Shown here: in pieces, positions 2,939 through 62,237 of the stretch
Layout of the letters: every line of letters begins with the position of its first letter
How positions within the stretch are numbered: position 1 is the first letter of the stretch
Source of the DNA: a virus
Lineage: Duplodnaviria; Heunggongvirae; Uroviricota; Caudoviricetes
Length of the DNA stretch: 64,000 bases
Strand: one strand, 5' to 3'
IMG/VR virus record: IMGVR_UViG_2861084961_000001
Translations under genes and position numbers: made by a program
Notes under the pieces: model-generated
The model's input: only the letters and a program-made list of their open reading frames with translations
The model's database searches: none
Told to the model about the DNA's origin: nothing

Positions 2939-2959
2939 ATAAGTAATCACTTACGTTAT
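2939..2959. promoter_or_regulatory. motif A palindrome (ATAAGTAA-N4-TTACGTTAT)
   Basis: Intergenic, upstream of 3017 gene. Confidence 0.4.
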
Positions 2960-3016
2960 TTGATGGTATATTTATATAAGAAGTTGAAAGCTCATTAGAA
3001 AACAAAGGAAAAACGC

Positions 3017-3289
3017 ATGACTACTACTGCACTGCAAAATGAAAAAAATCCTTCTGATTACCTTGTTTGCAAGTGGTGCGGAAAATCATTTCACTATTTT
3101 AAGTCCCATGTAGCCAATGGTAATTGCGAGGGCATTCCTGAGTCAGTAAAAGATGCCGATCCTGACACCGTACTGAAAATGTACACAACGCAGTTTCCAG
3201 ATGAGCCAACGCTATCGAAAAAGGCACTTGATGCAATTCAAGCTAAACGTGCCGAGCAAAAAGCGAAATGGCCAAATCATCTGGCGTGA
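3017..3289 (+). CDS. hypothetical Cys/His-containing small protein (90 aa), possibly an N-terminal extension of the downstream ATPase
   Basis: ORF track; CxxC...H...C pattern; preceded by AGGAAAAACGCATG start context. Confidence 0.3.
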   Translation: MTTTALQNEKNPSDYLVCKWCGKSFHYFKSHVANGNCEGIPESVKDADPDTVLKMYTTQFPDEPTLSKKALDAIQAKRAEQKAKWPNHLA

Positions 3290-4251
3290 CCAATAGCCCA
3301 GGCTATACAGGCACAGTTGAGTACAAGACAGATCTGGTCGCAGCTCACGAACTGCTAAATGTAACGGTGAAAGAACTCGGAACAAAACGTGGGACGCCGC
3401 TCATGGTTAGCGTCAACGTCAATACGCCGTTTCCAGAGTTCGTTCCAGAAGTGAAGAAGGGATACGTATATGGCGACTTCGAACTGATCAAAGACATTTT
3501 CATGATGCTTGAACTTGGCATACCAGGCTATTTGTGGGGTCATGCAGGAACAGGCAAATCTTCATTGCCTACACAACTATGTGCTTTGCTCAATCGTCCG
3601 TTAATCCGTGCCCAACATACAGCATCAATGGAAGAGGCTCATGTTACGGGACAAATTCTGGCGCGTGATGGCTCTACGTATTTCGAGCCTGGCTTGCTTG
3701 CGCTCGCAATGAAGCATGGCTGGGTTTACCTCGCGGATGAATACGACTTTGCGTTTCCACAGATTCTTGGCGTGTATCAGCCAGTGCTGGAAGGTGAAGC
3801 GTTGGTCATCAAAGAGGCGACTCCAGAATGGCGTCGCATTACTCCGCATGAACGGTTTGCTTTCATTGGCACTGGCAACACGAACGGATCTGGTGATGAA
3901 ACCGGCTTGTACCAGGGTACAAACATCCAGAACGCCGCTAACTTTTCGCGTTTTGGCATCGTTTCGAATGTGAAATACATGAGCAAAGAGGCAGAGATCA
4001 ACATGTTGATAAATGCCGGCATCGTGGATGAATACGCTGAAAAGATGGTTAAGTTTGCCGGTATCGTTCGCGATGGATACGAAGAACACCTGATCAGTCA
4101 GCCGATTGGCCCTCGTGAACTTTTGTTGTCGGCCAAGATTGGAATGATGCGAGGCGACTTTGTGACAGGTATTGAGCGTTCTTTCATTAACAAACTCCCT
4201 TCAGCTTCTGCGCAAGCGGCACGTGAAGTTGTTCAAAAAATATTTGGTTAA
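3268..4251 (+). CDS. MoxR/CobS-like AAA+ ATPase
   Basis: Walker A GHAGTGKSS, Walker B-like VYLADEYD, about 327 aa, adjacent to vWA partner. Confidence 0.65.
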   Translation: MAKSSGVTNSPGYTGTVEYKTDLVAAHELLNVTVKELGTKRGTPLMVSVNVNTPFPEFVPEVKKGYVYGDFELIKDIFMMLELGIPGYLWGHAGTGKSSLPTQLCALLNRPLIRAQHTASMEEAHVTGQILARDGSTYFEPGLLALAMKHGWVYLADEYDFAFPQILGVYQPVLEGEALVIKEATPEWRRITPHERFAFIGTGNTNGSGDETGLYQGTNIQNAANFSRFGIVSNVKYMSKEAEINMLINAGIVDEYAEKMVKFAGIVRDGYEEHLISQPIGPRELLLSAKIGMMRGDFVTGIERSFINKLPSASAQAAREVVQKIFG

Positions 4252-4430
4252 TCGTGCGTAAAGGATGTTTCGGCTCTCTTATCGCTGCTTCTGAAACTGG
4301 CAAGGCTTGTCTGGTGTGTCCAGACAAGCCCGATTGTCACCAATCAGCAAAAGAAGTTGCGATTTCGATGTATGGGAAGTTCGTAGGCTTCCCCAATGAC
4401 AAAATCAAAAAACCAGAAAGGTAAAAACAC

Positions 4431-8502: not shown

Positions 8503-8619
8503 TTTTTGATAGATAATAAGTAAGTACTGATCTATCATTGAGCAGCTCGAAAGAGCCACGAATGAACGAAAGCCCAACGCGCATAGCGCCATCGGCCAAA
8601 TCACAACAAGGAGAAACAC

Positions 8620-11999: not shown

Positions 12000-12026
12000 A
12001 AGGCGTCCATAGGACGCCTTTTTTAT
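12000..12026 (+). terminator. rho-independent terminator AGGCGTCC-ATA-GGACGCCT plus T6
   Basis: Directly after the recombinase stop. Confidence 0.6.
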
Positions 12027-12039
12027 CTCTTGAAAATAT

Positions 12040-12055
12040 ATAAGTACTTACTTAT
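12040..12055. promoter_or_regulatory. motif A palindrome (ATAAGTA-CT-TACTTAT)
   Basis: Intergenic, upstream of 12088 gene. Confidence 0.4.
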
Positions 12056-12087
12056 TATTTTCGCATAACAACCACATAGGAAAACAC

Positions 12088-16855: not shown

Positions 16856-17069
16856 GTTTACAGTAAAATTTATATAAGTTAGTATCTACCTATCATGAAG
16901 ATTTTATTGAATACTTGTTGCTCATCGTGTCAATAGCTTTTGTCATCGACTGCATTTTCACTGGTGTCATTCGTAAAGTCTTTTCCCCGGTGAACGACGT
17001 AGTCATAAACGCTTTGGCTATCGTGCTCGTATTTAATTCAGCATTTGATGTAATCAAAGAGGTGGCAGC

Positions 17070-20375: not shown

Positions 20376-20395
20376 ATAGGTATATACTTACTTAT
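20376..20395. promoter_or_regulatory. motif A palindrome (ATAGGTA-N5-TTACTTAT)
   Basis: Intergenic, upstream of the SbcD-like gene. Confidence 0.4.
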
Positions 20396-25049: not shown

Positions 25050-25069
25050 ATAGGTAAGTGCTTATCTAT
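25050..25069. promoter_or_regulatory. motif A palindrome (ATAGGTAAG-TG-CTTATCTAT)
   Basis: Intergenic, upstream of nrdA. Confidence 0.4.
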
Positions 25070-25114
25070 TAACATGGGCCACTATATTTAGTGGCCCTCT
25101 TTATTTGGTGATAC

Positions 25115-29764: not shown

Positions 29765-29780
29765 ATAAGTAATTACTTAT
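29765..29780. promoter_or_regulatory. motif A palindrome (ATAAGTAATTACTTAT, perfect 16-mer)
   Basis: Intergenic, upstream of thyA. Confidence 0.45.
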
Positions 29781-29850
29781 CTCTGTGAGGTTTTTGTGTC
29801 ACTCCTTTTGAATCGTGAGCATACGAACGGTCAGGTAACAAACGCATCGT

Positions 29851-34566: not shown

Positions 34567-34597
34567 GATTGCCATACATAAAATCAAATGCAAAAAT

Positions 34598-34617
34598 AGG
34601 TAATCACTTACCTATTG
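34598..34617. promoter_or_regulatory. motif A palindrome (ATAGGTAA-TCAC-TTACCTAT, perfect arms)
   Basis: Immediately upstream of the Dam-like methyltransferase start. Confidence 0.45.
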
Positions 34618-36217: not shown

Positions 36218-36808
36218 ATGACGTCGAAGACACCAGCCCGGTCGCAAGCAAAAACTCGCAAAAAAGACAAAAACAAAAATTCTCCCCGCACCAATCCCAC
36301 AACGCCTGTCGTAGAGTTCAATCCCCAGCTTAAAACCGTGAAAATCTTCAGTGATGGCTCTTGCCTTAAAAATCCGGGTGGCCCGGGCGGTTACGGTATA
36401 GTTCTCCAGTATCGTGGTGAGGAACGCGAGTTCTCAGATGGTTTTCATAGCACCACCAATAACCGCATGGAGATGATGGGGGCACTTATCGGGCTGGAGC
36501 GTTTGAAATATCCATGCAACGTTATTTTGCACTCTGATAGCCAGTATCTGAAAAACGGCATGACACAGTGGATGAAATGGTGGAAACGCAATGGATGGAT
36601 GACTTCTGACAAAAAACCGGTAAAGAATGTTGATCTGTGGAAGCGTCTGGATGAGGCCGCAAGTCGACATAATGTTCGCTGGAAGTGGGTTAAAGGTCAC
36701 GCCGGGCATCGTGAAAATGAAATATGTGATCGACTCGCGAAGATCGCAGCTTTTTCCGCAGCAGATATGCCTCACAAGAAAGATATTGGTTTTGTTTATA
36801 ACAAGTAG
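36218..36808 (+). CDS. rnhA: ribonuclease HI with about 45-aa basic N-terminal extension
   Basis: [91 protein letters not shown]; ATG 36218 inside track ORF 36134..36808. Confidence 0.85.
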
Positions 36809-36827
36809 TAAGTAAGTGTTTACCTAT
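36808..36827. promoter_or_regulatory. motif A palindrome (GTAAGTAA-GTGT-TTACCTAT)
   Basis: Intergenic, after rnhA. Confidence 0.4.
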
Positions 36828-39173: not shown

Positions 39174-40857
39174 GAATACAGCCCTTTCCATCATCGACGA
39201 TGCCAGCTCAAACACGGCTATCGACTATCGTCAGGAAATGAATGTCATCCACGAAATCGTGGACGAGTGCGAGAAAGAGATCGCCTTCATGTATCAGGTA
39301 CACGACTTCGTTTATGGCGACGAACGCCACAACATGATTAATCGCCTGCTGAGACTAAACCATCGACCAGATGAAGATCGCTCGCGTTTAAATCGAGGTT
39401 GGTTGGATAAAGTTGATCTGGAATGGGTGAAACAGAATATTTGGGCCGAGTACTGGAGGAAGGTCACGGACATGACTAACGTTTTGCTGATCATGCCAGC
39501 TTCCCGTCGAGATGAGTGGCGCGAGCAGTTTATAGAGGGCAAACAGGAAGTCATCAAAACTGACAGAACCGGCTACCAGATGAAGGTTAAAGAGTTCGTT
39601 GGTGTACCGGAGTTCAAAGCAGAAACGGTCATACCCACGATGCTTAATTTGCTGAATGACAGGCACAAATATCTCTCTGAGCGCGTGTATGGCTTGTTTA
39701 AGGCGCTGAGTCCTGCGCACAAGACAAATAAGACAAACGGTTTCAGCGAGCGTCTGATAATCGCTGACTGCATTTCTGATTTCTGGCGGGACAGCGTTAG
39801 CGTGAACTATCGCAAAGAGGACTACATCGACGATCTGCGTGTCTTGCTTCATTTCTTCGCGCACAAAGAATTTATTACCATCAACCGCACTGCTGAGGTG
39901 CTATCAGCTGCGTATCGGGCAAACGACTGCCAGACCGGTGACTGGATGAACGTCGATGGAAATCTGATGCGCGTGAAGATGTTCAAGAACGGCAACGTTC
40001 ACTTTGAAATACATCCTGACGTGGCCTGGAAGTTGAATGAGGTGCTGGCTTACAGTATGCCTGCTGCAATCCCCGCGCCATGCCGAACTGCGCCAAAAAC
40101 ACGGGCACCAAAGCAGTTCGGTTTAATCCAGAAGACGATCTCCGTGCCGGTTCGCACTGCGCTTCGTGACGGGCGATTGAGCAAAGACAAAGGCGTATGG
40201 TACTTCTCTGATTCAGCTCTCCAGAAGTCGCAGGTGGAAGAGCTTGAGCGCACACTGAGCTTCATTGGCGGCGTGCAGGAGAAAAAGCACTGGCAGTTCC
40301 CGTATGACATCGGCCATACGCTAAATACGATTGTGGCTACCGGTTTAATACCGGATACAAAATCACACCAGTTCTACCCTACCCCACGCTTGATTGCTGA
40401 GTACGTTGCCAGAGCCACTGAATTGAAGCCTGGTGAGAAGCTGCTTGAGCCTCACGCCGGACGTGGGGATCTTCTGGCCTATATTAACGCCGATCTGGAA
40501 GATGTTACCTGCATAGAAATCGCACCTCTCTTCGCTGATATCCTGCGTGGAAAAGGGTATACGAACACGATTTGCTGCGACTTCATAAAGTGGTCTGAGG
40601 ACAACGCAGGTTATCAGTTCGACAAAATCGTTATGAACCCGCCGTACTCGCTTGGTCGTCATAGGGAGCACACGATGGCTGCGCTGGGGCATCTGAAAGT
40701 CGGCGGGCGTCTTGTAGCAGTATTGCCGGGCACTGCGCCAATACTGGACTGGATGACGATGGATAATTACGTTTATGCCAGAGGGAAGTCGTTTACCAAC
40801 GAGTTTGAAGACACAGGGATCACAGTCAGCGTATACGTTTTCAAACGCGTTAAATGA
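39172..40857 (+). CDS. DNA methyltransferase with about 400-aa N-terminal domain of unknown function and C-terminal NPPY-type catalytic domain
   Basis: LEPHAGRGDLL (SAM-binding-like) and DKIVMNPPYSLG; 561 aa intact. Confidence 0.6.
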   Translation: MNTALSIIDDASSNTAIDYRQEMNVIHEIVDECEKEIAFMYQVHDFVYGDERHNMINRLLRLNHRPDEDRSRLNRGWLDKVDLEWVKQNIWAEYWRKVTDMTNVLLIMPASRRDEWREQFIEGKQEVIKTDRTGYQMKVKEFVGVPEFKAETVIPTMLNLLNDRHKYLSERVYGLFKALSPAHKTNKTNGFSERLIIADCISDFWRDSVSVNYRKEDYIDDLRVLLHFFAHKEFITINRTAEVLSAAYRANDCQTGDWMNVDGNLMRVKMFKNGNVHFEIHPDVAWKLNEVLAYSMPAAIPAPCRTAPKTRAPKQFGLIQKTISVPVRTALRDGRLSKDKGVWYFSDSALQKSQVEELERTLSFIGGVQEKKHWQFPYDIGHTLNTIVATGLIPDTKSHQFYPTPRLIAEYVARATELKPGEKLLEPHAGRGDLLAYINADLEDVTCIEIAPLFADILRGKGYTNTICCDFIKWSEDNAGYQFDKIVMNPPYSLGRHREHTMAALGHLKVGGRLVAVLPGTAPILDWMTMDNYVYARGKSFTNEFEDTGITVSVYVFKRVK

Positions 40858-40876
40858 TAGGTAAATACTTACTTAA
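40857..40876. promoter_or_regulatory. motif A palindrome (ATAGGTAA-ATAC-TTACTTAA)
   Basis: Intergenic, upstream of 40919 gene. Confidence 0.4.
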
Positions 40877-51540: not shown

Positions 51541-51566
51541 TGCCCGGCAATACGCTGGGCATTTTC
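51541..51566 (+). terminator. rho-independent terminator after metG
   Basis: TGCCCGGC-AATAC-GCTGGGCA plus TTTT. Confidence 0.6.
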
Positions 51567-51602
51567 ATATAGACACAATCCCTTCTGACTTTAACAAACC
51601 CT

Positions 51603-51668
51603 AAAACAATTTGTTTTCTGCCTTTTGTTGATTGAGATAATAAGCCACATAAGAAAACAAATTGTTTC
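51603..51668. promoter_or_regulatory. two motif B palindromes (AAAACAA-T-TTGTTTT and GAAAACAAATTGTTTC)
   Basis: Immediately right of the metG terminator, upstream of 51681 gene. Confidence 0.45.
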
Positions 51669-51680
51669 GGAGTGGTTGAA

Positions 51681-51980
51681 ATGTTGAACATTACCCAAGC
51701 CTACCAGGTGGCATTGATCAGTTCATCTCATACATCAGAGGAAGATGCTCGCCGATTCATGATCGCAAGCAATGAGCTGGATTGGGTTTCGCAAATTGAC
51801 GGCGGTTGTATTGTCCACGCCGGGTTACAGGATGATGTCTGGAAAGACGACTTGCGTCGATATGGTATATCCGAAGGCGCGATTGCTAACATTCAGAAAG
51901 TACTTGATGTAGGCTTTGACTCTGTACATTTTGATTGTGGTGCGCCGGTCGTTGAAGGGCTTGAGTGCTGGAACTGGTAA
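51681..51980 (+). CDS. hypothetical protein (99 aa)
   Basis: ATG 51681 within track ORF 51672..51980; motif-B sites upstream. Confidence 0.4.
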   Translation: MLNITQAYQVALISSSHTSEEDARRFMIASNELDWVSQIDGGCIVHAGLQDDVWKDDLRRYGISEGAIANIQKVLDVGFDSVHFDCGAPVVEGLECWNW

Positions 51981-52025
51981 CAGATATTAAAGCATTGGTA
52001 GTTTGTTTTTAGGATTATCAAAGAA

Positions 52026-52759
52026 ATGAAAAAGTTGAAAAGTTTAGAAATCCCTGGGACTGGTTATAAATTCTTTATGGACAACGCGGAGTGTGCGCCT
52101 AACGCGTTGGAAAAAATACAAAGTCTTATCAACAGCCTTACTGAAGAAGCGAAAGAACTGAAGAGCGAGGCGACAAAGGACAATACAGCTAAAATCCAAT
52201 GCTTAAATCTCGTCTCTTATTGTTTATATCAAGTATCCAAAACACTGATTAAAGGCAATATCTATTACGACGATGAAGACACCTCGACACCTGAAGAAAA
52301 GATAGCGATGAAGAACTCTATGAAGATATCTCTACTAGTGCGGGTCACGCTGCCTTCGATGCTATGGGTAAATCGTCAGGCATCAGATCATTTGTTGAAC
52401 AGAACAATTCGACAATAATGATTGAGTACTGTGAACAAACAAGCTCCAAGGCCATACATGTTCTTCACGATGTTGCTGCAGGGGTTCGTTGTGAGGCTGA
52501 AGCGGTAAGAAAAGATGTATTTGGTGCAGACAGTAATACCGTGAAAGCGTTTATCAACAGTGCTCTGCTAAATTCTTACTCAAACCTTATAGTCAATGCG
52601 GCACTATGCGCAAATTCAGGTGAAGAACACATTGTCATAACCGAAACCAAACATGAGCATCAACAGTCACCAACCATAGAAGAGGTAACTGCATTGGCTA
52701 TCAAACAGGCGAGTGAAATTAGTGATGAAATTCTCTCTCTGCTAAACAAAACTAGGTAA
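52026..52759 (+). CDS. hypothetical protein (ORFs 52026..52418 and 52364..52759, probably one gene)
   Basis: ORF track; overlapping frames. Confidence 0.35.
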
Positions 52760-52869
52760 AACATTGATAATGGCGGTCACAATTTGATTCTTTTCTATAA
52801 GAATCCGTTGATCGCCACTACTCCCCTTCCATACCTGCAATCACATCCTTAAATATCAATAGGTTGTAG

Positions 52870-53660
52870 TTGTTTATACAAACAAGAAAACAACTGAATA
52901 ACAGATCAACGAAACGTCAACGCTTTCACCCGATTTGGTCTAAAAAATTGACGTTTTCACACATCACTTCTTATACCCGCAATCCTACGCAGCAGACAGC
53001 GCCACAGCGTCCAATTTTCACCACAGACGACCCAACACACCACCAACAAAAACACACGCTCAAAATCGCTCTCGTTGCGTTACATAACCATATAAACAAC
53101 TTATTTTCAGGCATAACAAAACAACTAAATAACACATACGCAATTCCCAAAAACAACCAACCTCTTTATTGCAGGCTACCGAAAAGACCCACCTCTTCTT
53201 CCCAGGCTACCGGACAACCAACCTAACTTTCACAGGCAATCCGAAAACATTCATGCGCGCGATACCCACGACACGCCATTCCCCAAACAGCGAAGAAACA
53301 CCTGAACCACCGAAACCCCAACGAAGCCTGTAACCGCAAGGATTCTCTCAATCCCAAAAGACACGAAACATAACAATCACGGGAAACGCCATTACCCAAT
53401 ACACGAATAACTACAAAAGCCTTTCACACACTCCAGACAAACAACTCAAACACAATAACGAAAGGAATCGCCCACCTGCCATTACTCCATACACGGAGAA
53501 GAACAAGCACCAAAACGACGAGAACATCCCACAGAAGAACCACCGCAAAACTAACGAAACCATTTACACCGACAGAGAGAACAACACACCCAATTCACCA
53601 ACAGAATTAGTCGCCGTATAGAACGTTCTGGAAGGAGTGAGCATTAACGTCCATAGAGAG
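52870..53660. repeat. strand-asymmetric CA-rich non-coding region containing CAGGCTACCG-type direct repeats
   Basis: Plus strand almost free of G or T runs for about 800 bp; only ORF there is low-complexity; repeats near 53170, 53200, 53235. Confidence 0.45.
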
Positions 53661-53779
53661 GTTGAGACAGATAAAACACGAAGAAAACACAACATGTATA
53701 GCGAAGAAGCCAGGTATGTATAAGTGGGGAGGGAAGGAGGGGTGTCGCCTCCTTTTTCGTATTTATTCAACTCCTGATT

Positions 53780-53960
53780 TTATCCCCCGTAACACCCCTA
53801 CGGTCAGCCTTCGGTCCATACAGGGAAAGGCTGCATCCCGCTACAGAAACGGCTGGGTTGCCTTTGGGGAACGGCTGGAGGTTTTCAGGGAAACGGTCGA
53901 GTTGCCTTTGTGGATTTCGGGAAAAGGCTCGATGCCGGTTCAGGAACGGCGGCGTACCGG
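53780..53960. repeat. array of about six GGGAAACGGCT-like direct repeats spaced 22-30 bp
   Basis: CAGGGAAAGGCTG, CAGAAACGGCTGG, GGGAACGGCTGG, GGGAAACGGTCG, GGGAAAAGGCTCG, CAGGAACGGCGG. Confidence 0.45.
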
Positions 53961-54286
53961 TATAGCGAGAGGGAGAGTTGCGGCTACCCACCTGTAATGT
54001 GCGGGAAGAAGAGAGGCGCTCACGTGCAGGCGGACTTGCTTACCGCTGGATTCCCTCTGAATGCCCAGCTACAGCGTAATTGTGCCAGACAGCCAACGGG
54101 TCACGATCGATTTCAGTAGGTTTTCGGGGAGAGGATTATTCTGTCCACCAGCCACCTTCGGCCACTAAATCAGAATAATGTAAAAAGTGTACTCGGTACT
54201 GAACCTGAAAACTCACTGCCAAAACCACATTCACCGGAATAAAATCCTTTTTCGCCTGTGCGTTATTGCGATAATAACACCAACAA

Positions 54287-54301
54287 GAAAACATGTTGTT
54301 T
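54287..54301. promoter_or_regulatory. motif B palindrome (GAAAACATGTTGTTT)
   Basis: Upstream of 54314 gene. Confidence 0.4.
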
Positions 54302-54313
54302 AAGGATTGCTTT

Positions 54314-54643
54314 ATGTTTGCACATATCGACATCAACCAAATTAAGAAATTGACTCAAAAAGAGTTTGACCAGTTCTATGAGCTGGAAGGTTGGTCTTCC
54401 ACTCTGATTAATTCAAGATGGGTGCTGGAGCTGATGACTCGTGATGACGCACCTGCTTTGATGATTAGCGACCTGGGTGAAGATGCTGACTTTATGGATA
54501 TGAGCGAATTTTGTGTGGACACATACAACCGCAGCCAGAAGTACTACTTCACATGCGATAGCGAGAATGACGTGATTTCTAAGGTCTATCTTCACCTCGT
54601 CCAGCATTGGGACGTTCAGGAGTTTCTTGAGGTATTCGCGTAA
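54314..54643 (+). CDS. hypothetical protein (109 aa)
   Basis: ATG 54314 inside track ORF 54293..54643; motif-B site upstream. Confidence 0.4.
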   Translation: MFAHIDINQIKKLTQKEFDQFYELEGWSSTLINSRWVLELMTRDDAPALMISDLGEDADFMDMSEFCVDTYNRSQKYYFTCDSENDVISKVYLHLVQHWDVQEFLEVFA

Positions 54644-54769
54644 ACCAATCAAAGCCAGCATTGCTGGCTTAATTTCTCTATAGCCGCAGGGAGGAACCTG
54701 CATATCGCTCATGCACCTGATCAATATGCTTTGTAGCCGTTTTCTTACTGGTATTATTTACGCCATTGA

Positions 54770-54783
54770 GAAAACAAGTTGTT
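54770..54783. promoter_or_regulatory. motif B palindrome (AAAACAA-G-TTGTTT)
   Basis: Upstream of 54796 gene. Confidence 0.45.
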
Positions 54784-54795
54784 TACGGAGTTGTG

Positions 54796-55107
54796 ATGAA
54801 AAAATCATTGGTTCTTGGTCTGGACAAAGACCAGAAGAGAAAAGAGAAGCCTGCACTGGTTGCTCAATTAACTTTGCTGGACATCGTTGCCAATGGAACC
54901 TCTATTCGTCTGTTCCGTGAAACAGCGGTGTCTTTCGATAAAAACACCTTTACTCGTTATGTAATGAATGTTCGTCGCCAGCGTGGAAAAGGCTGGGTGG
55001 CATTTCAAAGAATGTGGCCGGAACATCAGCTCGAACTGGCTTTGATGGAAGTTAACCGCGTGGCCCAGCAAGAAATTCAGAGAGCATCAGTGATGGCAAT
55101 AGCCTGA
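54796..55107 (+). CDS. hypothetical basic protein (103 aa)
   Basis: ATG 54796 inside track ORF 54766..55107; motif-B site upstream. Confidence 0.4.
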   Translation: MKKSLVLGLDKDQKRKEKPALVAQLTLLDIVANGTSIRLFRETAVSFDKNTFTRYVMNVRRQRGKGWVAFQRMWPEHQLELALMEVNRVAQQEIQRASVMAIA

Positions 55108-55140
55108 TAATGTGCAAGTGGTAATTAGTCGACAGTACGA

Positions 55141-55171
55141 CAGCCCCGCCATCCTTACGGGGCTTTTTTGT
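55141..55171 (+). terminator. rho-independent terminator CAGCCCCG-loop-GGGGCT plus T6
   Basis: Stem plus TTTTTT. Confidence 0.6.
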
Positions 55172-55233
55172 ATTGTAAGTACATACCTACGACTATAAAA
55201 TAGAAAAATAACCAATACACTACGGAGAGTGAA

Positions 55234-55629
55234 ATGACCGTTAAACGCGAAAAACTGACAGTTGATGTTTACTATGCCTCTGAAACTGCCGAAGGTAAGA
55301 ATGTGGCAAAAATCACCGTTGTTACGTACAACACCGAAACTGGTGCCGAAGTCCAGGCCAGTACGATCGTGCGTAAAGGTGATGCCTCCGGCGGCGAGTA
55401 CGCGACTCAATACCAGTCCATTCTCGATGCAACTGACCCACTGCTGCTGAAAATCGAGAACTACTTCCGCCAGGTTGATGAAGAGGTGTTTGAAACCATG
55501 ATGAGTATGGTTAATTCCGTATTCACCTCCAGCCTGAACACTAGCACCACCTGGATTGGCCAGTACGGTCTGCGCATTACCTCCGGCATTCCTGCTGACA
55601 CCTTAATCCCTGAAAGCGTATTCGCTTAA
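55234..55629 (+). CDS. hypothetical protein (131 aa)
   Basis: ORF track; RBS GGAGAG. Confidence 0.45.
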   Translation: MTVKREKLTVDVYYASETAEGKNVAKITVVTYNTETGAEVQASTIVRKGDASGGEYATQYQSILDATDPLLLKIENYFRQVDEEVFETMMSMVNSVFTSSLNTSTTWIGQYGLRITSGIPADTLIPESVFA

Positions 55630-55638
55630 TCCTCTTTA

Positions 55639-55664
55639 AATGGCGCGTAAACCGCGCCATTTTC
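55639..55664 (+). terminator. rho-independent terminator AATGGCGCG-TAAAC-CGCGCCATT plus TTC
   Basis: Perfect 9-bp stem. Confidence 0.55.
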
Positions 55665-55673
55665 TTATGCCCG

Positions 55674-55690
55674 ATAACAATTTGTTTTCT
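55674..55690. promoter_or_regulatory. motif B palindrome (AACAA-T-TTGTT)
   Basis: Upstream of 55747 gene. Confidence 0.4.
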
Positions 55691-55746
55691 GCCTTATCTG
55701 ATTTGTGAAAATGATTTCACTGAAGCAACTTAATAAGGAAACCATC

Positions 55747-56121
55747 ATGGGACTTGATATCTATATCGAGACGCAGCCTAAAAACGATCTGAATAACGAG
55801 GCATCCAGAAAGCGGGTTGCTTACTTCCGTAAGTTCAATGCGCTCGTTGGGTGGATGGAGCGCAACGTAGGTGAAGTCGAAAATTGTGAGCTTTTAGAAT
55901 TAACGATGAATGACATTTGTTTTCTGAAGGCTCATTTGATGCACATAAATGAAAGTAATTGCGAAGAGTACTTGCCTACCCGGGAAGGTTTTTTCTTCGG
56001 CAGTCAGGAGTACGATGAAGGTTACTGGCATGACGTGGATAAGCTGAAAAAACTTGTGGAAGACCTGATCATGAACCACGACTTTCACAATAACAGACTG
56101 ACCTTCTGCGCCTGGTGGTAA
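55747..56121 (+). CDS. hypothetical protein (124 aa)
   Basis: ATG 55747 inside track ORF 55705..56121. Confidence 0.4.
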   Translation: MGLDIYIETQPKNDLNNEASRKRVAYFRKFNALVGWMERNVGEVENCELLELTMNDICFLKAHLMHINESNCEEYLPTREGFFFGSQEYDEGYWHDVDKLKKLVEDLIMNHDFHNNRLTFCAWW

Positions 56122-56124
56122 ATA

Positions 56125-56268
56125 TGGGCGATTTCAAGAAACGCCTGAAGGAAAGAGCCGAGATGGTCAGAAAGCGAAACGCCTATTCTGTCATCAGATA
56201 CGCAAGGCAGTTTAGTCGCAACAACAAATCAGTTGAGGAAAAGATCCTTAGCGTAATCGGGCGATAAT
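56125..56268 (+). CDS. small basic ORF (47 aa)
   Basis: Read from sequence; followed by hairpin AAGACCACC-AGCAT-TGGTGGTCTT at 56273-56296. Confidence 0.25.
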
Positions 56269-56436
56269 TATTAAGACCACCAGCATTGGTGGTCTTAAAT
56301 GACCATCCTGTTTCCCGCAGGCTAAAAACACCAACCTCTTACCTCCAGGCAACCGACAAACCCACCTGTTCCCGTCAGGCTACCGCAACTTTCCACTTTG
56401 ACGCCTTATTCGTACAACGATAATTAACGCCAACAA

Positions 56437-56451
56437 GAAAACAATTTGTTA
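56437..56451. promoter_or_regulatory. motif B palindrome (GAAAACAATTTGTTA)
   Basis: Upstream of 56472 gene. Confidence 0.4.
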
Positions 56452-56471
56452 TTTACGATAAGGAATTAATC

Positions 56472-56954
56472 ATGAATTTTATCGCTACTGTAAACGCACC
56501 CGCACATGGCAATATCGCTGTAACGTTCTCTGACATTGAAAAACGAGTACTTGGTGCCTGGCGTCACAATGAGACGGTAGAACTGTCAGCACAAGAAAAA
56601 TGCATTATTGCACGCGACATCATTGGCAATCGTCGTTACTCGCGGGTATTTGAGAAAGCGTATGTGGTAAATTCTGGATTCGGAACGTTCGTCTTTCCGG
56701 TGCGCTCCGGGCGATTCTGCCAGTCCAAGCTGATTGAGTTCGCTACGCAGATTTCTGTCTGGATTAAAACTCAATCGTCGTTCAAATTTTCCGACGATGA
56801 AGCAGTATCGCAGGGGATGCGGATCGCCAACAATGCAATTAAATGCAAAAACATTACGTATACCGCTGGCGTTGATACATGGAAACTGTTTTGCGCTAAC
56901 TTTATGCTGAATGTATACGCAAGCAACCGCATCCACATCCTTGATGGCGTGTAA
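56472..56954 (+). CDS. hypothetical protein (160 aa)
   Basis: ORF track; motif-B site upstream; followed by hairpin AGGGCC-AGAAAC-GGCCCT. Confidence 0.45.
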   Translation: MNFIATVNAPAHGNIAVTFSDIEKRVLGAWRHNETVELSAQEKCIIARDIIGNRRYSRVFEKAYVVNSGFGTFVFPVRSGRFCQSKLIEFATQISVWIKTQSSFKFSDDEAVSQGMRIANNAIKCKNITYTAGVDTWKLFCANFMLNVYASNRIHILDGV

Positions 56955-57570
56955 CTGAGAAGAGGGCCAGAAACGGCCCTTTCTCTATAGCCACCAGCTG
57001 CCGCAGGGAAATTTTCAGAAACGGCGAGGAACGTATTCATGAGCCGACGGGAAACGGCCAGGATTTTTTTCGGGAAACGGCTGTATTCGCCTTTATGTAG
57101 AAAAACATCGGGAAGCTGGTGGAATCCAACCAGCGGTTGTCGGACAGGTGAGCGGGGAAAATTATAATGACTTTCGTCGCCTGAGACATCCAGATTTCTT
57201 TCGTAGCATAATCACATACGTGATTAAGTGGTGTGATTATGTGAAAAATCACGCGCACATAATACGCGATCGGACACAGAACAAAACAAAATGCCGATCC
57301 GCACCGACAAATACACGCTGATCACATAGCAAGACTAAAAGCCAATGATTAACCATACTCTATAGCGCAATATAACGCGCTTTAAGCGCGTTAATGTGTT
57401 AAGTAATGGGTATGTACTGGCGAGGATATAAAAGCGCGACTATGGCGTTATTTTGGCGCTTATTTTTATGTTGTTGGAGTGAGTTAAAGACAATAAATAA
57501 CGCGCCAATGATGGCGCGTTATGGTGGGAGTATTGGAAACGAAAAAAGCGCCCATAGTGGGCGCTCGATT

Positions 57571-57798
57571 TTATTTATGTAAACTGATTTCAAATCCCAT
57601 TTCTACGAACGCTTTTAACATTAAAAATATATCAGCGTCGTTCACGTCTGCTTTTTTTCGCTCCTGGTCGCTCAATAAGTCAATTTTGCGCGTCGTTTCA
57701 TCTATAAGCTCAACAGATCCAGCGTAACCAGCGATCCCAGCAATATCATTAACACAATATTCATTGTGGACGTTAACGCCAGCGATAAGAACAAACAT
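57571..57798 (-). CDS. hypothetical protein (75 aa)
   Basis: ORF track; followed on minus strand by hairpin AGCGCCCA-TAG-TGGGCGCT and T-run. Confidence 0.35.
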   Translation of the reverse strand: MFVLIAGVNVHNEYCVNDIAGIAGYAGSVELIDETTRKIDLLSDQERKKADVNDADIFLMLKAFVEMGFEISLHK

Positions 57799-57819
57799 GA
57801 TTAAGCTCCTTAAAAAAAA

Positions 57820-58023
57820 TTAAATAGAATTTTGAAGTTTTCCGATTAATGCGCTTAAGCGTAAGTATTCACGTTTGCGCTTGCAATCTCGCTTGCTGTT
57901 AAGCAAATCAGAAAACGTAAAATTTAATTGGTCGCGTTGCGCGATCAAATCATCGATTAATTCCAGTTTGTAAGCGCGATACTTTGCGCGATATTCCGCG
58001 CGGATCTTGTCATAGCTGACCAT
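57820..58023 (-). CDS. hypothetical protein (67 aa)
   Basis: ORF track; strong AAGGAG RBS. Confidence 0.35.
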   Translation of the reverse strand: MVSYDKIRAEYRAKYRAYKLELIDDLIAQRDQLNFTFSDLLNSKRDCKRKREYLRLSALIGKLQNSI

Positions 58024-58070
58024 TTTAAAGCTCCTTTAAAGCGCCCATAGTGGGCGCTTGATTCCATTAA

Positions 58071-58720
58071 TTACGCTTTGAAAGCATCAGCTAGATAATT
58101 GTAGAAATCATTCTTGATAAAGCGATATTGCTGCGTACCAGCTTTGGCGCTTCCCATTCCTTTGACTTTCTCAACAAGTCCAAGACGTTCGCAAAGATTG
58201 ATCAACTGGTTGGCTTGAGTATAGCCAGCGTCCAATTTAATTTCGCACGCTTTTTTAGCTTCATTCATCAAATCGAAAACAGCGCCATTAGTGAACGTGT
58301 CGATCTCGTCGTTAATCATATCGATTAAAGCGAATACACGAGATCCAGACATATCAGCGACGGAATAAACACATTTACCAGCTTTAATGGATTTAACCAG
58401 ATAAACCAGTTTTCCAGTGAATAACTATTAGTCATAGCATCACGGAAAAATACTTCTGGCGCTTGTTTGCTTGCTTTAATCGCATAGTAGAAAACAGAGC
58501 ATAATTTTTCGTCTTCTACAGCGTTTACAACGTTGTTGATGAAGTAAGCAAGTTTAGTGGTCGCAGCTTGCATATTTGCTTTGTCTGCTTTAGTGTGCGT
58601 ACCATTTTTATAATGTTCGTTATATGTTTGAGTTGCCAGATCTGCTTTTTCGCGCAGCTCGTCGGATACAATAGATGCAGCTTCAATGATGGACTTTTTA
58701 GAAATGATAATGTTAGCCAT
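58071..58720 (-). CDS. hypothetical protein (ORFs 58325..58720 and 58071..58352, probably one gene)
   Basis: ORF track; overlapping frames. Confidence 0.35.
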
Positions 58721-59001
58721 GATAATTTTTCCTTATGTAAATTTAAAATTTATTGTCGTTAGCGTCTTCGCTTTCGACGAGTTCAATTATCGATATGCGA
58801 AAAAAGATTGCAAGTATTTTTTTTAAATTTTTTGCAGGGATGAAAGTCCTAGAAATAAAAGCGAGATCGTCGAAGGTGTTCCCTAAATAAATAATCGATT
58901 CCGGCTTTCGACCTTATATATTTAGGTTGTTTGATTTATAGATATAAAGAAGTGATGTGAAAAATAATAACCGGACTTAGCCGGTTATTAACCTTATAGA
59001 T

Positions 59002-59310
59002 TTATTGAACAGACTCTACAGCCTTACGATTGGTGTCAAATAGCGCATCAACGAACTGTGCCGATGACTCGCTAGATTCGCAATCCAACATTGCCCGTTC
59101 TTCATTTGCCACTTTCTTACACAGTTCCACATTCTCACCTATCGCTTTTCCTGCTTTTACGGCTGCCGAAAATTGATACATGCAAACTGATACATTCTGA
59201 GATGTTGAGCACACGTCATTCATCAGCGACTGAATGACAGGCTTATAGTCCATTGCATTTGCTGCAACTGAGCAAAGTAAAAAAAATGGTGGTAACAATA
59301 TCGATTTCAT
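59002..59310 (-). CDS. secreted Cys-containing small protein with signal peptide
   Basis: MKSILLPPFFLLCSVAANA signal-like N-terminus. Confidence 0.4.
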   Translation of the reverse strand: MKSILLPPFFLLCSVAANAMDYKPVIQSLMNDVCSTSQNVSVCMYQFSAAVKAGKAIGENVELCKKVANEERAMLDCESSESSAQFVDALFDTNRKAVESVQ

Positions 59311-59353
59311 AACTCAAAAAGGCAAAATTCGCTCAACCCAATCGAACAAATAA

Positions 59354-59836
59354 CTATTTTTCTACCGTTCTCGACACGTAGTGTAACCTGACAAGCATCT
59401 GCGCCTGCTGACACCCCTCAATTTCACGGCCATCCGCCATGTACACTCTTATAGATTTGTTTGCTTTATAGGCTTGGTTGCAAATAGCAAAAAAATCGCG
59501 GCGTGATGGCCGATTATCGACATAATCAGGATGAACTGTTAATCGACCTTTGAAATCGTGAGCGATACTGTCAACCACACCTGATTCAATTGTACTAATG
59601 CGTTCAAGTGGGAGCCTTATACGATTTTCTTTGTCAAAAGGGGCTGGGCAAAGGTCAACTTTGTTACGAGATGGCATGAGGCCATAAACGTACATGCAAA
59701 ACGCCTGGCCATCTTCCAGAGTGGCCCTTACAGGAATTTGTTCTCTGCGCCAGAACATCAGTAGTTTTTCAACGTTAGTGTAATCTCGCGGCCAGAGTTC
59801 AGCTTGGATACCGTAGGTAATATCTTTGGTTGTCAT
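59354..59836 (-). CDS. hypothetical protein (160 aa)
   Basis: Internal ATG 59836 directly after the upstream stop inside track ORF 59354..59914. Confidence 0.4.
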   Translation of the reverse strand: MTTKDITYGIQAELWPRDYTNVEKLLMFWRREQIPVRATLEDGQAFCMYVYGLMPSRNKVDLCPAPFDKENRIRLPLERISTIESGVVDSIAHDFKGRLTVHPDYVDNRPSRRDFFAICNQAYKANKSIRVYMADGREIEGCQQAQMLVRLHYVSRTVEK

Positions 59837-59840
59837 GTCA

Positions 59841-60305
59841 TCACAGAGTTGTTGGCAGAATGTCGATGTCGCCAGAATTGCTGGTGAACACCCTGAACGC
59901 TTTTGTGTCTCCATTCTTCAGAGTCGTTTCTCGCTCTTGACGAGCGGGGTTTAGAGCACATAAACCTGCACCTTCAAGAGATGCACCCACAATTAATTCT
60001 CCGGCATTTAAATGGAAAGTCGCTTTTTCGCCTGTAGCCAGTTTTGCGACAGTTTCGCCGTTGATGAAAATGGAAGCATCACATCCAGCTCCTACAAAAC
60101 CTGTGTCTCTCATTACCACCAACGTAGCTGGCGCTGCGCTTTGATACTTGAACACTTTGGCCTGCGGTGCTGGTTTGGCGTCATGGATTGATATTGGGCG
60201 TGATTGGCACGCGGTAAGCATCAACACTGGTAACGTTAGTAGAGGGAGAAGCGAGTATTTCATGATAGTTTTAGAACAGAAAGTGAACAGTATGGGAGAC
60301 TTCAT
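59841..60305 (-). CDS. lipoprotein (lipobox LTAC), Gly/Ala-rich beta-type
   Basis: MKYSLLPLLTLPVLMLTAC signal with lipobox; RBS AGGGAGA before ATG 60305. Confidence 0.5.
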   Translation of the reverse strand: MKSPILFTFCSKTIMKYSLLPLLTLPVLMLTACQSRPISIHDAKPAPQAKVFKYQSAAPATLVVMRDTGFVGAGCDASIFINGETVAKLATGEKATFHLNAGELIVGASLEGAGLCALNPARQERETTLKNGDTKAFRVFTSNSGDIDILPTTL

Positions 60306-60331
60306 CTTTGTCTCCCTAATTGATAGCGTGA

Positions 60332-60610
60332 TTATTTTAATCTGCTTAATAGCGTTTCGAGATCTTCCTTTGTCATATTAGAGTTCTCATAGATACGCAT
60401 GATTTTCTCACGAGTCTTAGCGGAAGCCCCGACAGAAGATATAACCTTGTCAAAGTCGGCCATTGTCAATTGTTCCAGAATGGTATTTATGACTTCAGCC
60501 TTAGACATTTTGATATTTTTTTCTTTTAGTTTCACTTGAAACTTTCCAAGTTTGTCATTGGCCTTATCAGACAATGCTACCTGACAGTAAGTTGTTTTCT
60601 TTTCACTCAT
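60332..60610 (-). CDS. hypothetical protein (92 aa)
   Basis: ORF track. Confidence 0.4.
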   Translation of the reverse strand: MSEKKTTYCQVALSDKANDKLGKFQVKLKEKNIKMSKAEVINTILEQLTMADFDKVISSVGASAKTREKIMRIYENSNMTKEDLETLLSRLK

Positions 60611-60612
60611 AA

Positions 60613-62172
60613 CTAATCTCGTTTCAGAACCCCAAAATCGAATGCTCCATCAATAGGCAATACACCTTCTGCAAAGCCAGGTGTGGTGTCGATGATGTGT
60701 TTTCGCTCATAAGAGTGAGACAACAGGTATTTGTTGCTAATGTCAATGAAATCAGTGATAAAACACACGTTTGCCTGATTTTTTTTGGCTCGTAAGCCAC
60801 GACCGACACGCTGTCTCATTTCAACTTCTGCTTTCCCACCACCAGCAAGAATGACCGCACCAACGCTTGGCACATCAACACCAACATCCAGAATAGTCGA
60901 GCCTATTAAAACATCTATTTCACCAGACGCTAAACTGTTCAGCTTTGCTTGCCTTGTCGTCTGGTTAGATTCCCCATAGATGAAATCAACTCTAAGACCT
61001 GACTCCTTCATCATCTCCATCAGGATTTGCCCGTGGCGTTTAAGACGAACCAGAGTCATGCAGTTGAGTGAATGTTGCTTATAAAGCAATGCCTCGCGCA
61101 CTATGGCCTCGTTACGTCCCAAATTATACACGATCCCCAACTGATAAGCCTTTTGGTAGGCGGTGCTCATACCAACTCTAAAATTGAGGTGTTTGTTGGC
61201 AAGTTCGGCCTTGATTCTGGCCTCGTCTGGTTTGTAGGCAACTTTATGATAAAGGAAGTACGGCTTTGCCAGAATGCCTCGATCAATCAGGTACTTTTCT
61301 GTGACTTTAATTTCAATTCGCCCGGCCACCGCCATCAGGCGCATGTTGGCTTCCGTCGAATCCTTCATGAACGGCGTGGCTGTAAGCGCCAGACGATAGT
61401 CTGCGTTCACACATAATCTGGCGATGTCATAGAAATTTGAGCCTGAAGACTCATGCGCCTCTTCCAGAATAAGAAGAGAGACACTTGAAAGGAAGCGTTT
61501 CACCAACTCCCGACGTTTGAGGTGGTAGCTCTTCTTATCTGGAGTTGCATCGCGTGGTGGTTCTTCAAGGAAACTTGCCAGAGTTTGAACTGTAGCGACG
61601 TTGATATGTCGTGATACCTGGAACTCACCCGAGCCAATTACTCCAACCTTTTGGTCTTTTAACCACGGTTCGCCATTTTCGGCGCGGTAGTCGATGGATC
61701 TCTGGAAGTTTTCGGCCATCTGAAACATCAGAACAGAGCGGGTTGTTAAAAATAATGTCATTCGACCGATACGTGCAGCTGCTTTGCAGGCAACATTAGA
61801 TTTCCCGCCACCAGTAGCGATCTGCGCAATCATCATTCCCTCGCGAACTAGCGTTTCCACAGTCTGATCCTGATACGCATAATCAGGATTGTATGGGAAT
61901 GGGTTAACCGCCGGATTTGGCTTTCCAAGCGCCGGGGCTTTGTCTTTGCGGATATGAACACATTTGATGCCCGCCTTGTTCAAGTTCGCCGCTACAGGCT
62001 TGGCAAAGCCAGCAGGGAACGAGTTTTTACTCCAGTTGAACATTGTGCTTGTGCCCTTCCAGTCGCCAGTCTCGACTTCGTAGCTCAACATCTGTTGCAC
62101 CAGTTGCTTTACCTTGTCATCTGCGCCAGAAATAAGCGCATTAACTGCGTTAGATACAATCCGAACAGTCAT
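60613..62172 (-). CDS. superfamily-2 DNA/RNA helicase
   Basis: Motif I ATGGGKS, motif II LEEAH, motif III TATP, motif VI QRVGRGLR; 519 aa intact. Confidence 0.7.
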   Translation of the reverse strand: MTVRIVSNAVNALISGADDKVKQLVQQMLSYEVETGDWKGTSTMFNWSKNSFPAGFAKPVAANLNKAGIKCVHIRKDKAPALGKPNPAVNPFPYNPDYAYQDQTVETLVREGMMIAQIATGGGKSNVACKAAARIGRMTLFLTTRSVLMFQMAENFQRSIDYRAENGEPWLKDQKVGVIGSGEFQVSRHINVATVQTLASFLEEPPRDATPDKKSYHLKRRELVKRFLSSVSLLILEEAHESSGSNFYDIARLCVNADYRLALTATPFMKDSTEANMRLMAVAGRIEIKVTEKYLIDRGILAKPYFLYHKVAYKPDEARIKAELANKHLNFRVGMSTAYQKAYQLGIVYNLGRNEAIVREALLYKQHSLNCMTLVRLKRHGQILMEMMKESGLRVDFIYGESNQTTRQAKLNSLASGEIDVLIGSTILDVGVDVPSVGAVILAGGGKAEVEMRQRVGRGLRAKKNQANVCFITDFIDISNKYLLSHSYERKHIIDTTPGFAEGVLPIDGAFDFGVLKRD

Positions 62173-62217
62173 AAACCTCTTTCCTTAGTGCCTTTTGTAT
62201 GTTATTTGGCTATTATA

Positions 62218-62237
62218 ATAAGTAAGTGATTACTTAG
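62218..62237. promoter_or_regulatory. motif A palindrome (ATAAGTAA-GTGA-TTACTTAG) in the divergent helicase / ParB-like promoter region
   Basis: Between 62172 (minus-strand start) and 62255 (plus-strand start). Confidence 0.4.

Follow-up and report, generated by a model that had tools for sequence, protein, structure and literature searches.

In phage P1, about 17-20 operators are scattered over the genome, with Oref, Omat, Ossb and Olpa among those annotated at promoters; the P1 repressor C1 is not known to be an XRE-type protein. Tens of sites in short intergenic gaps of early and late regions are also known for the gp71 stoperators of mycobacteriophage L5 and for the Streptomyces phiC31 repressor. 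The phiC31 sites are conserved inverted repeats before early genes, and the L5 stoperators are asymmetric, orientation-dependent 13-mers; the hosts and protein families of these systems differ from those described here. Regulators of the XRE/Cro-CI fold act as dimers on palindromic operators, often at their own promoters. Here we analyzed a palindrome dispersed over a 64,000 nt stretch of DNA (the window) from an E. coli SSU5-like phage-plasmid of the SSU5/pHCM2 type. A literature search covering papers other than the original SSU5 reports found none on SSU5/pHCM2 regulation or lysis-lysogeny control, and a search for the palindrome as a text string gave nothing relevant; the regulator and the operator set appear to be previously undescribed.

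The initial annotation had listed at least nine copies of the palindrome with half-sites separated by 0-5 nt. All nine are present in the window sequence, but the variable spacer is a misregistered reading. When spacers of 0-6 nt were scanned, coherent matches were obtained at 4 nt only, and the spacer-0 matches proved to be misaligned readings of N4 sites. In its true register, the motif is a 20-bp palindrome of fixed length, ATARGTAA-N4-TTACYTAT, in which the spacer is always 4 nt. Two of the listed coordinates need correcting, from 12040 to 12036 and from 34598 to 34596, while the others stand, and two more copies, at 8516 and 16874, were missing from the list. The 11 matches with at most 2-3 mismatches are far above chance, as 0.08 ± 0.27 were expected from 100 dinucleotide-preserving shuffles, none of which reached 11. 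A weight matrix built from these same sites gave them 18-28 bits and the remainder of the window at most 15 bits. Beyond the 11, a degenerate further copy with a perfect core was found at 280-299. The candidate operators, hereafter operators, and the associated features are as follows.

1..251, minus strand: 5′ part of the XRE-type HTH regulator gene, comprising the N-terminal 83 codons and truncated at the left edge of the window
280..299: variant, weaker operator TCTGGTAAGTGCTTACCGAT with the perfect core GGTAAGnnCTTACC, 11.1 bits, directly after the −10 of the regulator promoter
298..325, minus strand: sigma-70-like regulator promoter TTTACA, 16 nt, TAATAT, from a consensus scan
2939..2958: operator ATAAGTAATCACTTACGTTA, the weakest (3 mismatches, 18.1 bits), between CobT-like and CobS-like genes
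8516..8535: operator ATAAGTAAGTACTGATCTAT, 13 nt after a UvsY-like gene and 84 nt before a gp32-like SSB gene
12000-12020: terminator preceding the site at 12036
12036..12055: operator ATATATAAGTACTTACTTAT, filling the 17-nt spacer of promoter-like TTGAAA-N17-TATTAT (12030-12058)
16874..16893: operator ATAAGTTAGTATCTACCTAT, with the next start codon 1 nt downstream; 20/20 identical in SSU5
20376..20395: operator ATAGGTATATACTTACTTAT, upstream of an SbcD-like gene
25050..25069: operator ATAGGTAAGTGCTTATCTAT, 8 nt after a RuvC-like gene and overlapping promoter-like TTGATA-17-TAACAT (25047-25075)
25076..25097, plus strand: terminator hairpin GGGCCACTATATTTAGTGGCCC with a T-run, immediately following the −10 of site 25050
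29765..29784: operator ATAAGTAATTACTTATCTCT (alternative register 29761-29780), upstream of thyX
34596..34615: perfect operator ATAGGTAATCACTTACCTAT, 11 nt before the start of an adenine-methyltransferase gene
36808..36827: operator GTAAGTAAGTGTTTACCTAT, overlapping the stop codon of an RNase H gene
40857..40876: operator ATAGGTAAATACTTACTTAA, overlapping the stop codon of a DUF4942 gene, with an ead/Ea22-like gene 42 nt on
62218..62237: operator ATAAGTAAGTGATTACTTAG, in the gap between the divergent genes for a UvsW-like helicase (minus strand) and the first ParB_N-domain protein (plus strand)

All 11 sites lie between ORFs, 1-129 nt upstream of the next start codon, which bears out the proposed bias toward gene starts. 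They do not form a local operon set; the regulon postulated earlier holds in a wider sense, being genome-wide and including late genes outside the window. The operator-preceded units inside the window are replication, recombination and nucleotide-metabolism genes, and those elsewhere in the genome are head, tail and lysis genes; nrdA, thyX, ssb, recA-like, sbcD and methylase genes are all preceded by sites. The annotated genome of the related phage Cyrano contains 20 sites, of which 19 are intergenic although intergenic DNA makes up 13% of the genome (binomial P = 3e-16), and there the motif also precedes the morphogenesis and lysis genes that lie outside the window.

The motif is better conserved than its surroundings. 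At nine orthologous sites in SSU5 (Salmonella), it is 91% identical versus 71% for the flanks (P = 6e-9); the counterpart of site 8516 is 19/20 identical and that of site 12036 is 20/20 identical. The motif also occurs at syntenic positions in distant relatives with 30-58% protein identity and 42-66% GC, where site calls carry roughly 1 false positive per 17 kb; for instance, site 62218 has a syntenic counterpart in a 60% GC relative (L100). As the palindrome is always transcribed as intercistronic sequence, sometimes adjoins a ribosome-binding site and could form an 8-bp stem, it might instead act in RNA, the hairpin serving as a processing site, a stabilizer or a translational operator. We regard this as hardly tenable. 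On the sense strand, G.U and A.C combinations are equally frequent (38 versus 38), positions 4 and 17 vary independently among enteric sites (Fisher P = 0.54), and primary sequence beyond pairing is conserved from 42% to 66% GC. There were no Rfam matches and no compensatory pattern, so the RNA hairpin was rejected. Independent variation of the half-sites without RNA-type compensation indicates a DNA-binding dimer, in agreement with the operator set for a dimeric regulator suggested initially.

The candidate put forward for this regulator was the XRE-family protein encoded at the window start. The full-length protein has 128 amino acids and is the orthologue of CYRAN_45, a ′putative repressor′. 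The protein homologue search covered relatives of at least 55% identity, and the Cyrano, PhiR41_1 and CMS-2020a proteins share 97-100% identity with the regulator. Its match to Pfam HTH_19 is weak (19.7 bits, under the cut-off of 30.2), and no sequence-level match to it was found among solved structures. In an AlphaFold model of moderate confidence (pLDDT 72.5), the best structural matches of the N-terminal domain found with Foldseek were XRE-fold regulators, namely the R-M controller proteins C.BclI, C.AhdI and C.Esp1396I, SinR, HigA and the SaPI repressor Stl, with TM-scores of 0.6-0.8 normalized to the target, E-values of only about 0.01 and 14-25% identity. The C-terminal helical half had no clear counterpart among these structural matches, and the protein is devoid of an S24 peptidase domain, though the element is ciprofloxacin-induced. 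Of 80 diverse loci, 62 have the regulator gene in the syntenic position immediately upstream of CobT. Some GC-rich relatives carry it in the same direction as the lytic genes, with a full operator in the regulator promoter, a layout that is less usual for a lysogeny repressor.

The regulator and the palindrome covary. The HTH contains Gly36-Tyr37-Lys38-Asn39, and residue 39, at the start of the recognition helix, tracks operator position 7 in 55 of 56 diverged loci, with the sites identified independently of operator positions 3 and 7. Asn39 goes with A at position 7 (14 loci) and a non-Asn residue with C (41 loci); all 29 loci with Lys have C there, and all 8 with Arg or Gln have C at position 3 as well as at position 7. 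At least five independent motif switches, each coincident with a residue switch, were counted on an NJ tree of one neighboring gene, a count that recombination could inflate. The regulator also has a variant operator of its own. The arrangement TTTACA-N16-TAATAT-CGGTAAG(C/T)ACTTACCA is kept in Klebsiella pJN2-26 while the flanks diverge, and site 280-299 is, judged from its sequence and position, presumed to be an autoregulatory operator. On these comparative grounds, the binder of the palindrome is very probably the 128-aa XRE-type HTH protein, which upholds the earlier candidate.

Dispersed sites for ParB-family proteins are used by N15 and IncP plasmids, and two ParB_N-domain genes directly follow a conserved site (62218 in the window) in all relatives examined. 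The palindromes could then be bound by another conserved protein such as these two ParB_N-domain proteins, in the manner of KorB OB sites or dispersed centromeres. This reading would leave the covariation of the operator with the recognition helix of the HTH regulator and the variant site on that regulator′s promoter to be accounted for. Moreover, the ParB-like genes are in a block with terminase genes and stay silent in the lysogen (5.0 and 9.5), the state in which partition would be required. We consider this reading very unlikely.

The HTH protein itself is expressed in the lysogenic state. In RNA-seq of an LF82 lysogen, CYRAN_45 stands at 95.8 against a background of 9.8, and the 19 operator-adjacent genes have a median near 8 (PMC9928086, S1 Table). 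The regulator gene is absent from the searched 100 kb of the 103-kb genome of SSU5, a virion isolate, which keeps 23 sites. The expression of the regulator with its targets silent, together with the retention of sites in SSU5 without the gene, points to a repressor, and the absence of the gene would explain the lytic-phage behavior of this isolate. We consider it probable that the palindromes are operators of a phage-plasmid maintenance repressor, the 128-aa XRE-fold HTH protein, that silences lytic genes.

The position of the operators relative to promoters was analyzed in this context. At sites with recognizable hexamers, the operator variously occupies the 17-nt spacer, extends over the −35 or sits on the start site. 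The promoter-like sequence filled by site 12036 matches the consensus at 10/12 positions and is the second best in 20 kb, and at site 8516 promoter-like TAGATA-17-TATCAT is in register. Site 34596 is just downstream of promoter-like TTGCCA-17-AAAAAT (34569-34597), so that the predicted start site is covered; at site 62218, a TATAAT hexamer adjoins the operator on the minus strand. In distant relatives, both hexamers match at ≥4/6 in the gene direction at 11 of 44 sites versus 0 in mirror orientation, with a −35 asymmetry of P = 9e-5. In the enteric genomes, −35/−10 matches did not improve when read in the gene direction rather than in mirror orientation, the asymmetry not being significant, and the apparent TATnAT occurs on both sides of the palindrome; promoter scans overall showed no enrichment over shuffles. 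Given these enteric and overall scan results, promoter function is well supported for a subset of sites only. The placement in promoter regions described earlier applies to this subset, in recognizable sigma-70 promoters; other sites follow a stop codon, coincide with a ribosome-binding site or precede a terminator hairpin. At site 25050, the terminator hairpin and then nrdA follow, and the predicted start site is within the 5′ arm of the hairpin; the same operator-then-hairpin order is found in SSU5 and at other sites in relatives. Strong hairpins directly downstream were present at only about 12 of 93 sites, and the mean hairpin energy downstream versus upstream of sites showed no significant overall difference (P = 0.31).

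Many enteric sites lack a recognizable −35, and certain relatives of the XRE fold, R-M controller proteins for example, are capable of activation. The palindrome might thus be a positive promoter element that replaces a good −35, through which the same HTH protein, acting as an activator, or a P1 Lpa-like protein turns on all lytic promoters; the P1 late promoters share the general layout of a palindrome centered near −22 followed by a −10. When six annotated P1 late promoters were compared, their element, AAGTkACTT-N4-TAnnAT, was unlike the motif in sequence and spacing, and tblastn with P1 Lpa found no homologue in the window, Cyrano or SSU5 (best E = 0.73). Early as well as late genes are preceded by sites, and several distant sites already have a near-consensus −35/−10 with a 17-nt spacer. 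The operator register relative to the promoter-like hexamers is not fixed, and this variation fits a repressor better than an activator. Moreover, lysogens transcribe the regulator with its targets remaining silent, and SSU5 propagates as a phage without it. Activation is thus quite unlikely.

Repression need not occur at initiation. Of the 19 intergenic sites in Cyrano, 12 begin ≤18 nt past the preceding stop codon, and the ends of 7 are ≤21 nt from the next start codon, so that about a third of the sites leave no room for a normal leader; others are internal to the long late operon, such as those separating terminase from portal or following the capsid gene. These positions would suit the same repressor if its sites served mostly to block elongation or to insulate units, in the manner of the L5 stoperators, rather than as promoter operators. 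Consistent with such a role, expression drops 9-fold, from 54.6 (CY30) to 6.2 (CY31), across site 31296, located between the parA operon and the replication genes (PMC9928086, S1 Table). In contrast, a leaky promoter is suggested at the weaker site 34730, past which expression climbs from 10.6 to 43.7, and a subset of sites is in clear promoters in fixed register and in the gene direction. The sites are also symmetric, unlike the L5 stoperators. As the main function of the sites, roadblocking is unlikely, but the two roles are compatible and not mutually exclusive.

The maintenance repressor would bind as a dimer to ATA(A/G)GTAAG-N2-CTTAC(C/T)TAT at about 20 operators in short gaps before almost every lytic transcription unit. 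A dimer bound in the spacer, at the −35 or over the start site would exclude RNA polymerase, and sites immediately behind a stop codon or on a ribosome-binding site would also stop read-through from plasmid-state genes. The weaker operator over the repressor′s own start site would provide negative autoregulation. Naming a master regulator and roughly 20 operators yields a testable map of the lysis-lysogeny switch, predicts cross-immunity between phage-plasmids of different genera, and offers a small natural set of repressor-operator pairs with a simple specificity rule.

Clinical E. coli, Klebsiella, Salmonella, Enterobacter and Yersinia pestis commonly carry phage-plasmids of the SSU5/pHCM2/pMT1/pKpn group, for which matches were obtained in about 800-1000 plasmid records. 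A tblastn search with the regulator matched 994 plasmid records, and genus by genus the counts agree with those of the element. As a tentative extension that we judge doubtful at present, the SSU5 superfamily could share one ancient master repressor with only about three operator specificities, set largely by a single residue, and carry operator-promoter-terminator cassettes at many operators. Such a superfamily may include pHCM2, pMT1, pKpn, the Acinetobacter AB group and many environmental relatives, and the specificities may depend largely on one residue, with Asn39 for TAAGTAA, Lys for TAAGTCA and Arg or Gln for TCAGTCA. Transcription from the cassettes may start within the 5′ arm of the terminator. 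If specificities are so few, all enterobacterial members would be homoimmune across genera; if the cassettes are real, every lytic unit would be insulated from upstream read-through and also repressible.

The described systems resemble this one in different respects. The L5 stoperators are similar in their placement within operons and differ in symmetry. The late promoters of P1, which depend on Lpa and SspA, likewise have a palindrome upstream of the −10 with little or no −35, and AAGT..ACTT is loosely similar; however, the P1 element is a 9-bp AAGTkACTT located 4 nt before the −10, whereas the palindrome here spans 20 bp and overlaps the −10, and the sites here extend beyond late genes. The late genes of P1 have a separate Lpa-dependent promoter class, whereas one symmetric operator precedes early and late genes here. 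The P1 operators of C1 are asymmetric 17-mers annotated as ′monovalent′, in contrast to the two-fold symmetric motif of this element. In overall design, P1 C1 is nevertheless alike, in that a plasmid prophage has one repressor and many dispersed operators overlapping lytic promoters.

The initial annotation listed nine intergenic copies of a palindrome with a spacer of 0-5 nt. All nine were found in the window sequence; scanning spacers of 0-6 nt replaced the variable spacer with a fixed 20-bp unit, ATARGTAA-N4-TTACYTAT, the spacer-0 matches being identical sites read in the wrong register. At up to two mismatches the window holds 11 matches vs 0.08 expected from 100 dinucleotide shuffles, none of which attained 11. 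The copies at 8516 and 16874 are additions, and every site falls between ORFs, as had been noted for the nine.

Motif starts in the window: 2939 (3 mismatches), 8516, 12036, 16874, 20376, 25050, 29765, 34596, 36808, 40857, 62218

A weight matrix derived from these same 11 sites scored them at 18-28 bits and all other window sequence at 15 bits or less. The stretch from ~42000 to 62000 has no operator copy; its genes are lambdoid ead/ea22-like, MetRS, MinD-like and small unknown ORFs. The Cyrano counterpart encodes an FljA-like 'repressor of phase-1 flagellin' (PF03614, E = 1e-80), and window ~59004-60357 gives no alignment to Cyrano over this gene.

At 97-98% identity the window matches three E. 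coli phage-plasmids, CMS-2020a, PhiR41_1 and Cyrano; its identity to Salmonella phage SSU5 is ~79%. Some 800 plasmid records also match, the genera being Klebsiella, Escherichia, Enterobacter, Yersinia, Salmonella and Citrobacter. The window aligns with 42.3-106.9 kb of Cyrano, the half of the element given to replication, recombination, nucleotide metabolism and accessory functions. Two genes that are single in Cyrano are split in the window; as both regions lack 1 nt relative to Cyrano, the splits are frameshifts or sequencing errors.

814-2067 and 2271-2921: ORFs of the split CobT-like gene (702 aa in Cyrano)
3017-3289 and 3268-4251: ORFs of the split CobS-like gene (411 aa in Cyrano)

Cyrano has 20 sites, some of which lie outside the window before portal, scaffold, tail, tail-fibre and holin genes; 19 of the 20 are intergenic, vs an intergenic share of 13% of the genome (P = 3e-16). 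At Cyrano 38252, beyond the window, what follows the copy is three clustered tRNA genes, not a protein-coding gene. SSU5 carries 23 sites in orthologous places, and across nine orthologous SSU5 sites the motif is 91% identical vs 71% in the 40-nt flanks (P = 6e-9). The consensus is the same in Klebsiella pJN2-26. An exact-pattern scan found 4-9 copies per 11-15 kb in viral contigs of 58-64% GC, which share gene order with Cyrano at 30-58% protein identity and have syntenic sites before ParB-like genes, in the terminase/portal gap and after the capsid gene.

An RNA element was rejected as an explanation of the palindrome. Sense-strand mismatches comprise G.U and A.C equally (38 each), positions 4 and 17 are independent in the enteric sites (Fisher P = 0.54), and an Rfam search of the window returned no match. 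These results indicate that the two halves act as independent half-sites of a DNA-binding dimer.

The candidate regulator is an XRE-type HTH protein of 128 aa, whose gene is cut by the left edge of the window.

1-251, minus strand: 5′ part of the regulator gene, first 83 of 128 residues (orthologue of CYRAN_45, 'putative repressor')

It matches HTH_19 weakly in Pfam. Its AlphaFold model (pLDDT 72.5) has an N-terminal domain with five helices, and the best PDB matches of the model are dimeric regulators of the XRE fold, namely R-M controller proteins, HigA, SinR and Stl; a sequence search for related solved structures found none. By tblastn, 994 plasmid records carry the regulator gene beside the integrase, and regulator and element counts are equal in Enterobacter (92), Yersinia (63), Salmonella (49), Citrobacter (25) and Cronobacter (10).

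The regulator and the operator covary. Around the adjacent CobS-like gene we gathered 80 diverse loci (44-100% identity to a 59% GC relative); the lineage reaches as far as contigs of 100-120 kb with 42-66% GC. Nearly all loci contain the core AGTnA-N4-TnACT at 4-9 copies per 17 kb vs ~1 in shuffles, and 62 of the 80 have a syntenic regulator. Three half-site classes were distinguished: TAAGTAA, TAAGTCA and TCAGTCA. Phage-plasmids of Acinetobacter are of the TCAGTCA class. Operators are shifted in related phage-plasmids: ATCAGTCAGTACTGACTGAT occurs in L130, the Acinetobacter baumannii plasmid NZ_CP155459.1, and TAAGTCA-type half-sites were found in most environmental relatives (L130 and loci L211-L290 surveyed). 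The class follows residue 39 of the regulator, the third after the conserved Gly36 and just ahead of the predicted recognition helix 41-47: Asn39 accompanies A at operator position 7 (14 loci), Lys39 accompanies C there (29/29), and Arg or Gln39 accompanies C at both position 3 and position 7 (8/8). Of the 56 loci whose motif was called confidently, 55 show agreement between residue and operator, under a site-finding rule that did not use positions 3 and 7. An NJ tree built from the neighbouring gene shows at least 5 changes of the motif and only 6 of the combined state, so that motif and residue switches coincide. Recognition of A:T by Asn, and of an opposite-strand G by Lys or Arg, are common readout patterns, which the observed pairing fits. 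Together with the independence of the half-sites, this covariation supports the original proposal of operators for a dimeric regulator, with the XRE-family protein at the window start as a candidate.

Several observations favor a repressor over an activator. The position of the operator relative to promoter-like hexamers varies, as is usual for repressors and not for activators: it occupies the spacer at 12036 (TTGAAA-17-TATTAT) and 8516, at 25050 overlaps both -35 and spacer, and covers the start site in two cases, 34596 and the promoter of the regulator itself. Among 44 sites of distant relatives, 11 carry both hexamers with at least 4/6 matches when read in the direction of the gene, and none does in the mirror orientation (-35 asymmetry, P = 9e-5); such promoters should be active unaided, which again favors repression. 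Two results weaken this case: in the enteric genomes hexamer matches are symmetric, the gene direction being no better than the mirror orientation, and promoter scans gave no overall enrichment. In RNA-seq of the LF82 lysogen the regulator is expressed (95.8 vs background 9.8) while the median of the 19 operator-adjacent genes is near 8 (PMC9928086, S1 Table), as expected for a repressor. In the same data, expression drops at site 31296, from 54.6 before it to 6.2 after it, and climbs from 10.6 to 43.7 past the weaker site 34730 (PMC9928086, S1 Table). Moreover, the regulator gene is absent from SSU5 (100 kb of the 103-kb genome searched), and propagation of this phage without it likewise favors a repressor. 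Alternatively, the palindromes could be bound by ParB_N proteins, whose genes lie directly downstream of one conserved site; however, these genes are silent in the lysogen, and operator specificity follows the HTH regulator. The palindromes are most likely the dispersed operator set of the XRE-type repressor.

Some sites may act as roadblocks or be served by unusually short leaders, considering that a third lie too near the start codon to allow a normal leader and 12 of the 19 intergenic Cyrano sites start within 18 nt past the upstream stop codon. Directly after ~12 of 93 sites lies a strong terminator hairpin, and the predicted start site would fall in its 5′ arm.

Operator and -10 followed by a strong terminator hairpin:
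25050-25097 in the window
5443, 15529 and 22448 in Cyrano
11001 in L100, 8650 in L043, and L040 (loci of relatives)

Transcription starting ~7 nt past the -10 would begin within the 5′ arm, so that upstream transcripts would terminate and local ones would not; this arrangement suggests an insulating design.

The regulator may also control itself. Directly after the TAATAT of its promoter, at 280-299, lies CGGTAAGCACTTACCAG, a degenerate operator whose core is perfect, and this layout is kept in Klebsiella though the surrounding sequence has diverged. We presume from the sequence that it is an autoregulatory site.

Ahead of the regulator gene, minus strand: sigma-70-like promoter TTTACA-16-TAATAT (hexamer scan)
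503-715: divergent 70-aa ORF, CYRAN_46 orthologue, opposite the regulator gene across gap 252-502
47765-47784: perfect LexA box TACTGTATGCATATACAGTA, 17 nt 5′ of the UmuD-like gene
47801-48190: ORF of the UmuD-like S24 peptidase, CYRAN_98 orthologue

The gap also contains a lone half-site, ATAGGTAAG, at 400 and, near 463-487, CTTACC...ATAAGTTAG with half-sites in swapped order. CYRAN_46, strongly up in macrophage samples (PMC9928086, S1 Table), might serve as a Cro-like or anti-repressor partner. As the repressor has no peptidase domain, an SOS-controlled partner might, speculatively, couple DNA damage to induction; CYRAN_98 reaches 148 vs background 9.8 in the LF82 lysogen (PMC9928086, S1 Table).

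The literature on SSU5, on pHCM2, on repressors and operators of phage-plasmids and on the motif itself, with older papers partly covered, gave no account of the regulator or its sites. The P1 late promoter was rejected as a counterpart: the overall layout is shared, but sequence and spacing differ, and no Lpa homologue was found. Conceptually the set resembles P1 C1 and L5 gp71, where one repressor acts at dispersed sites, but here the protein belongs to a different family and the sites are symmetric.
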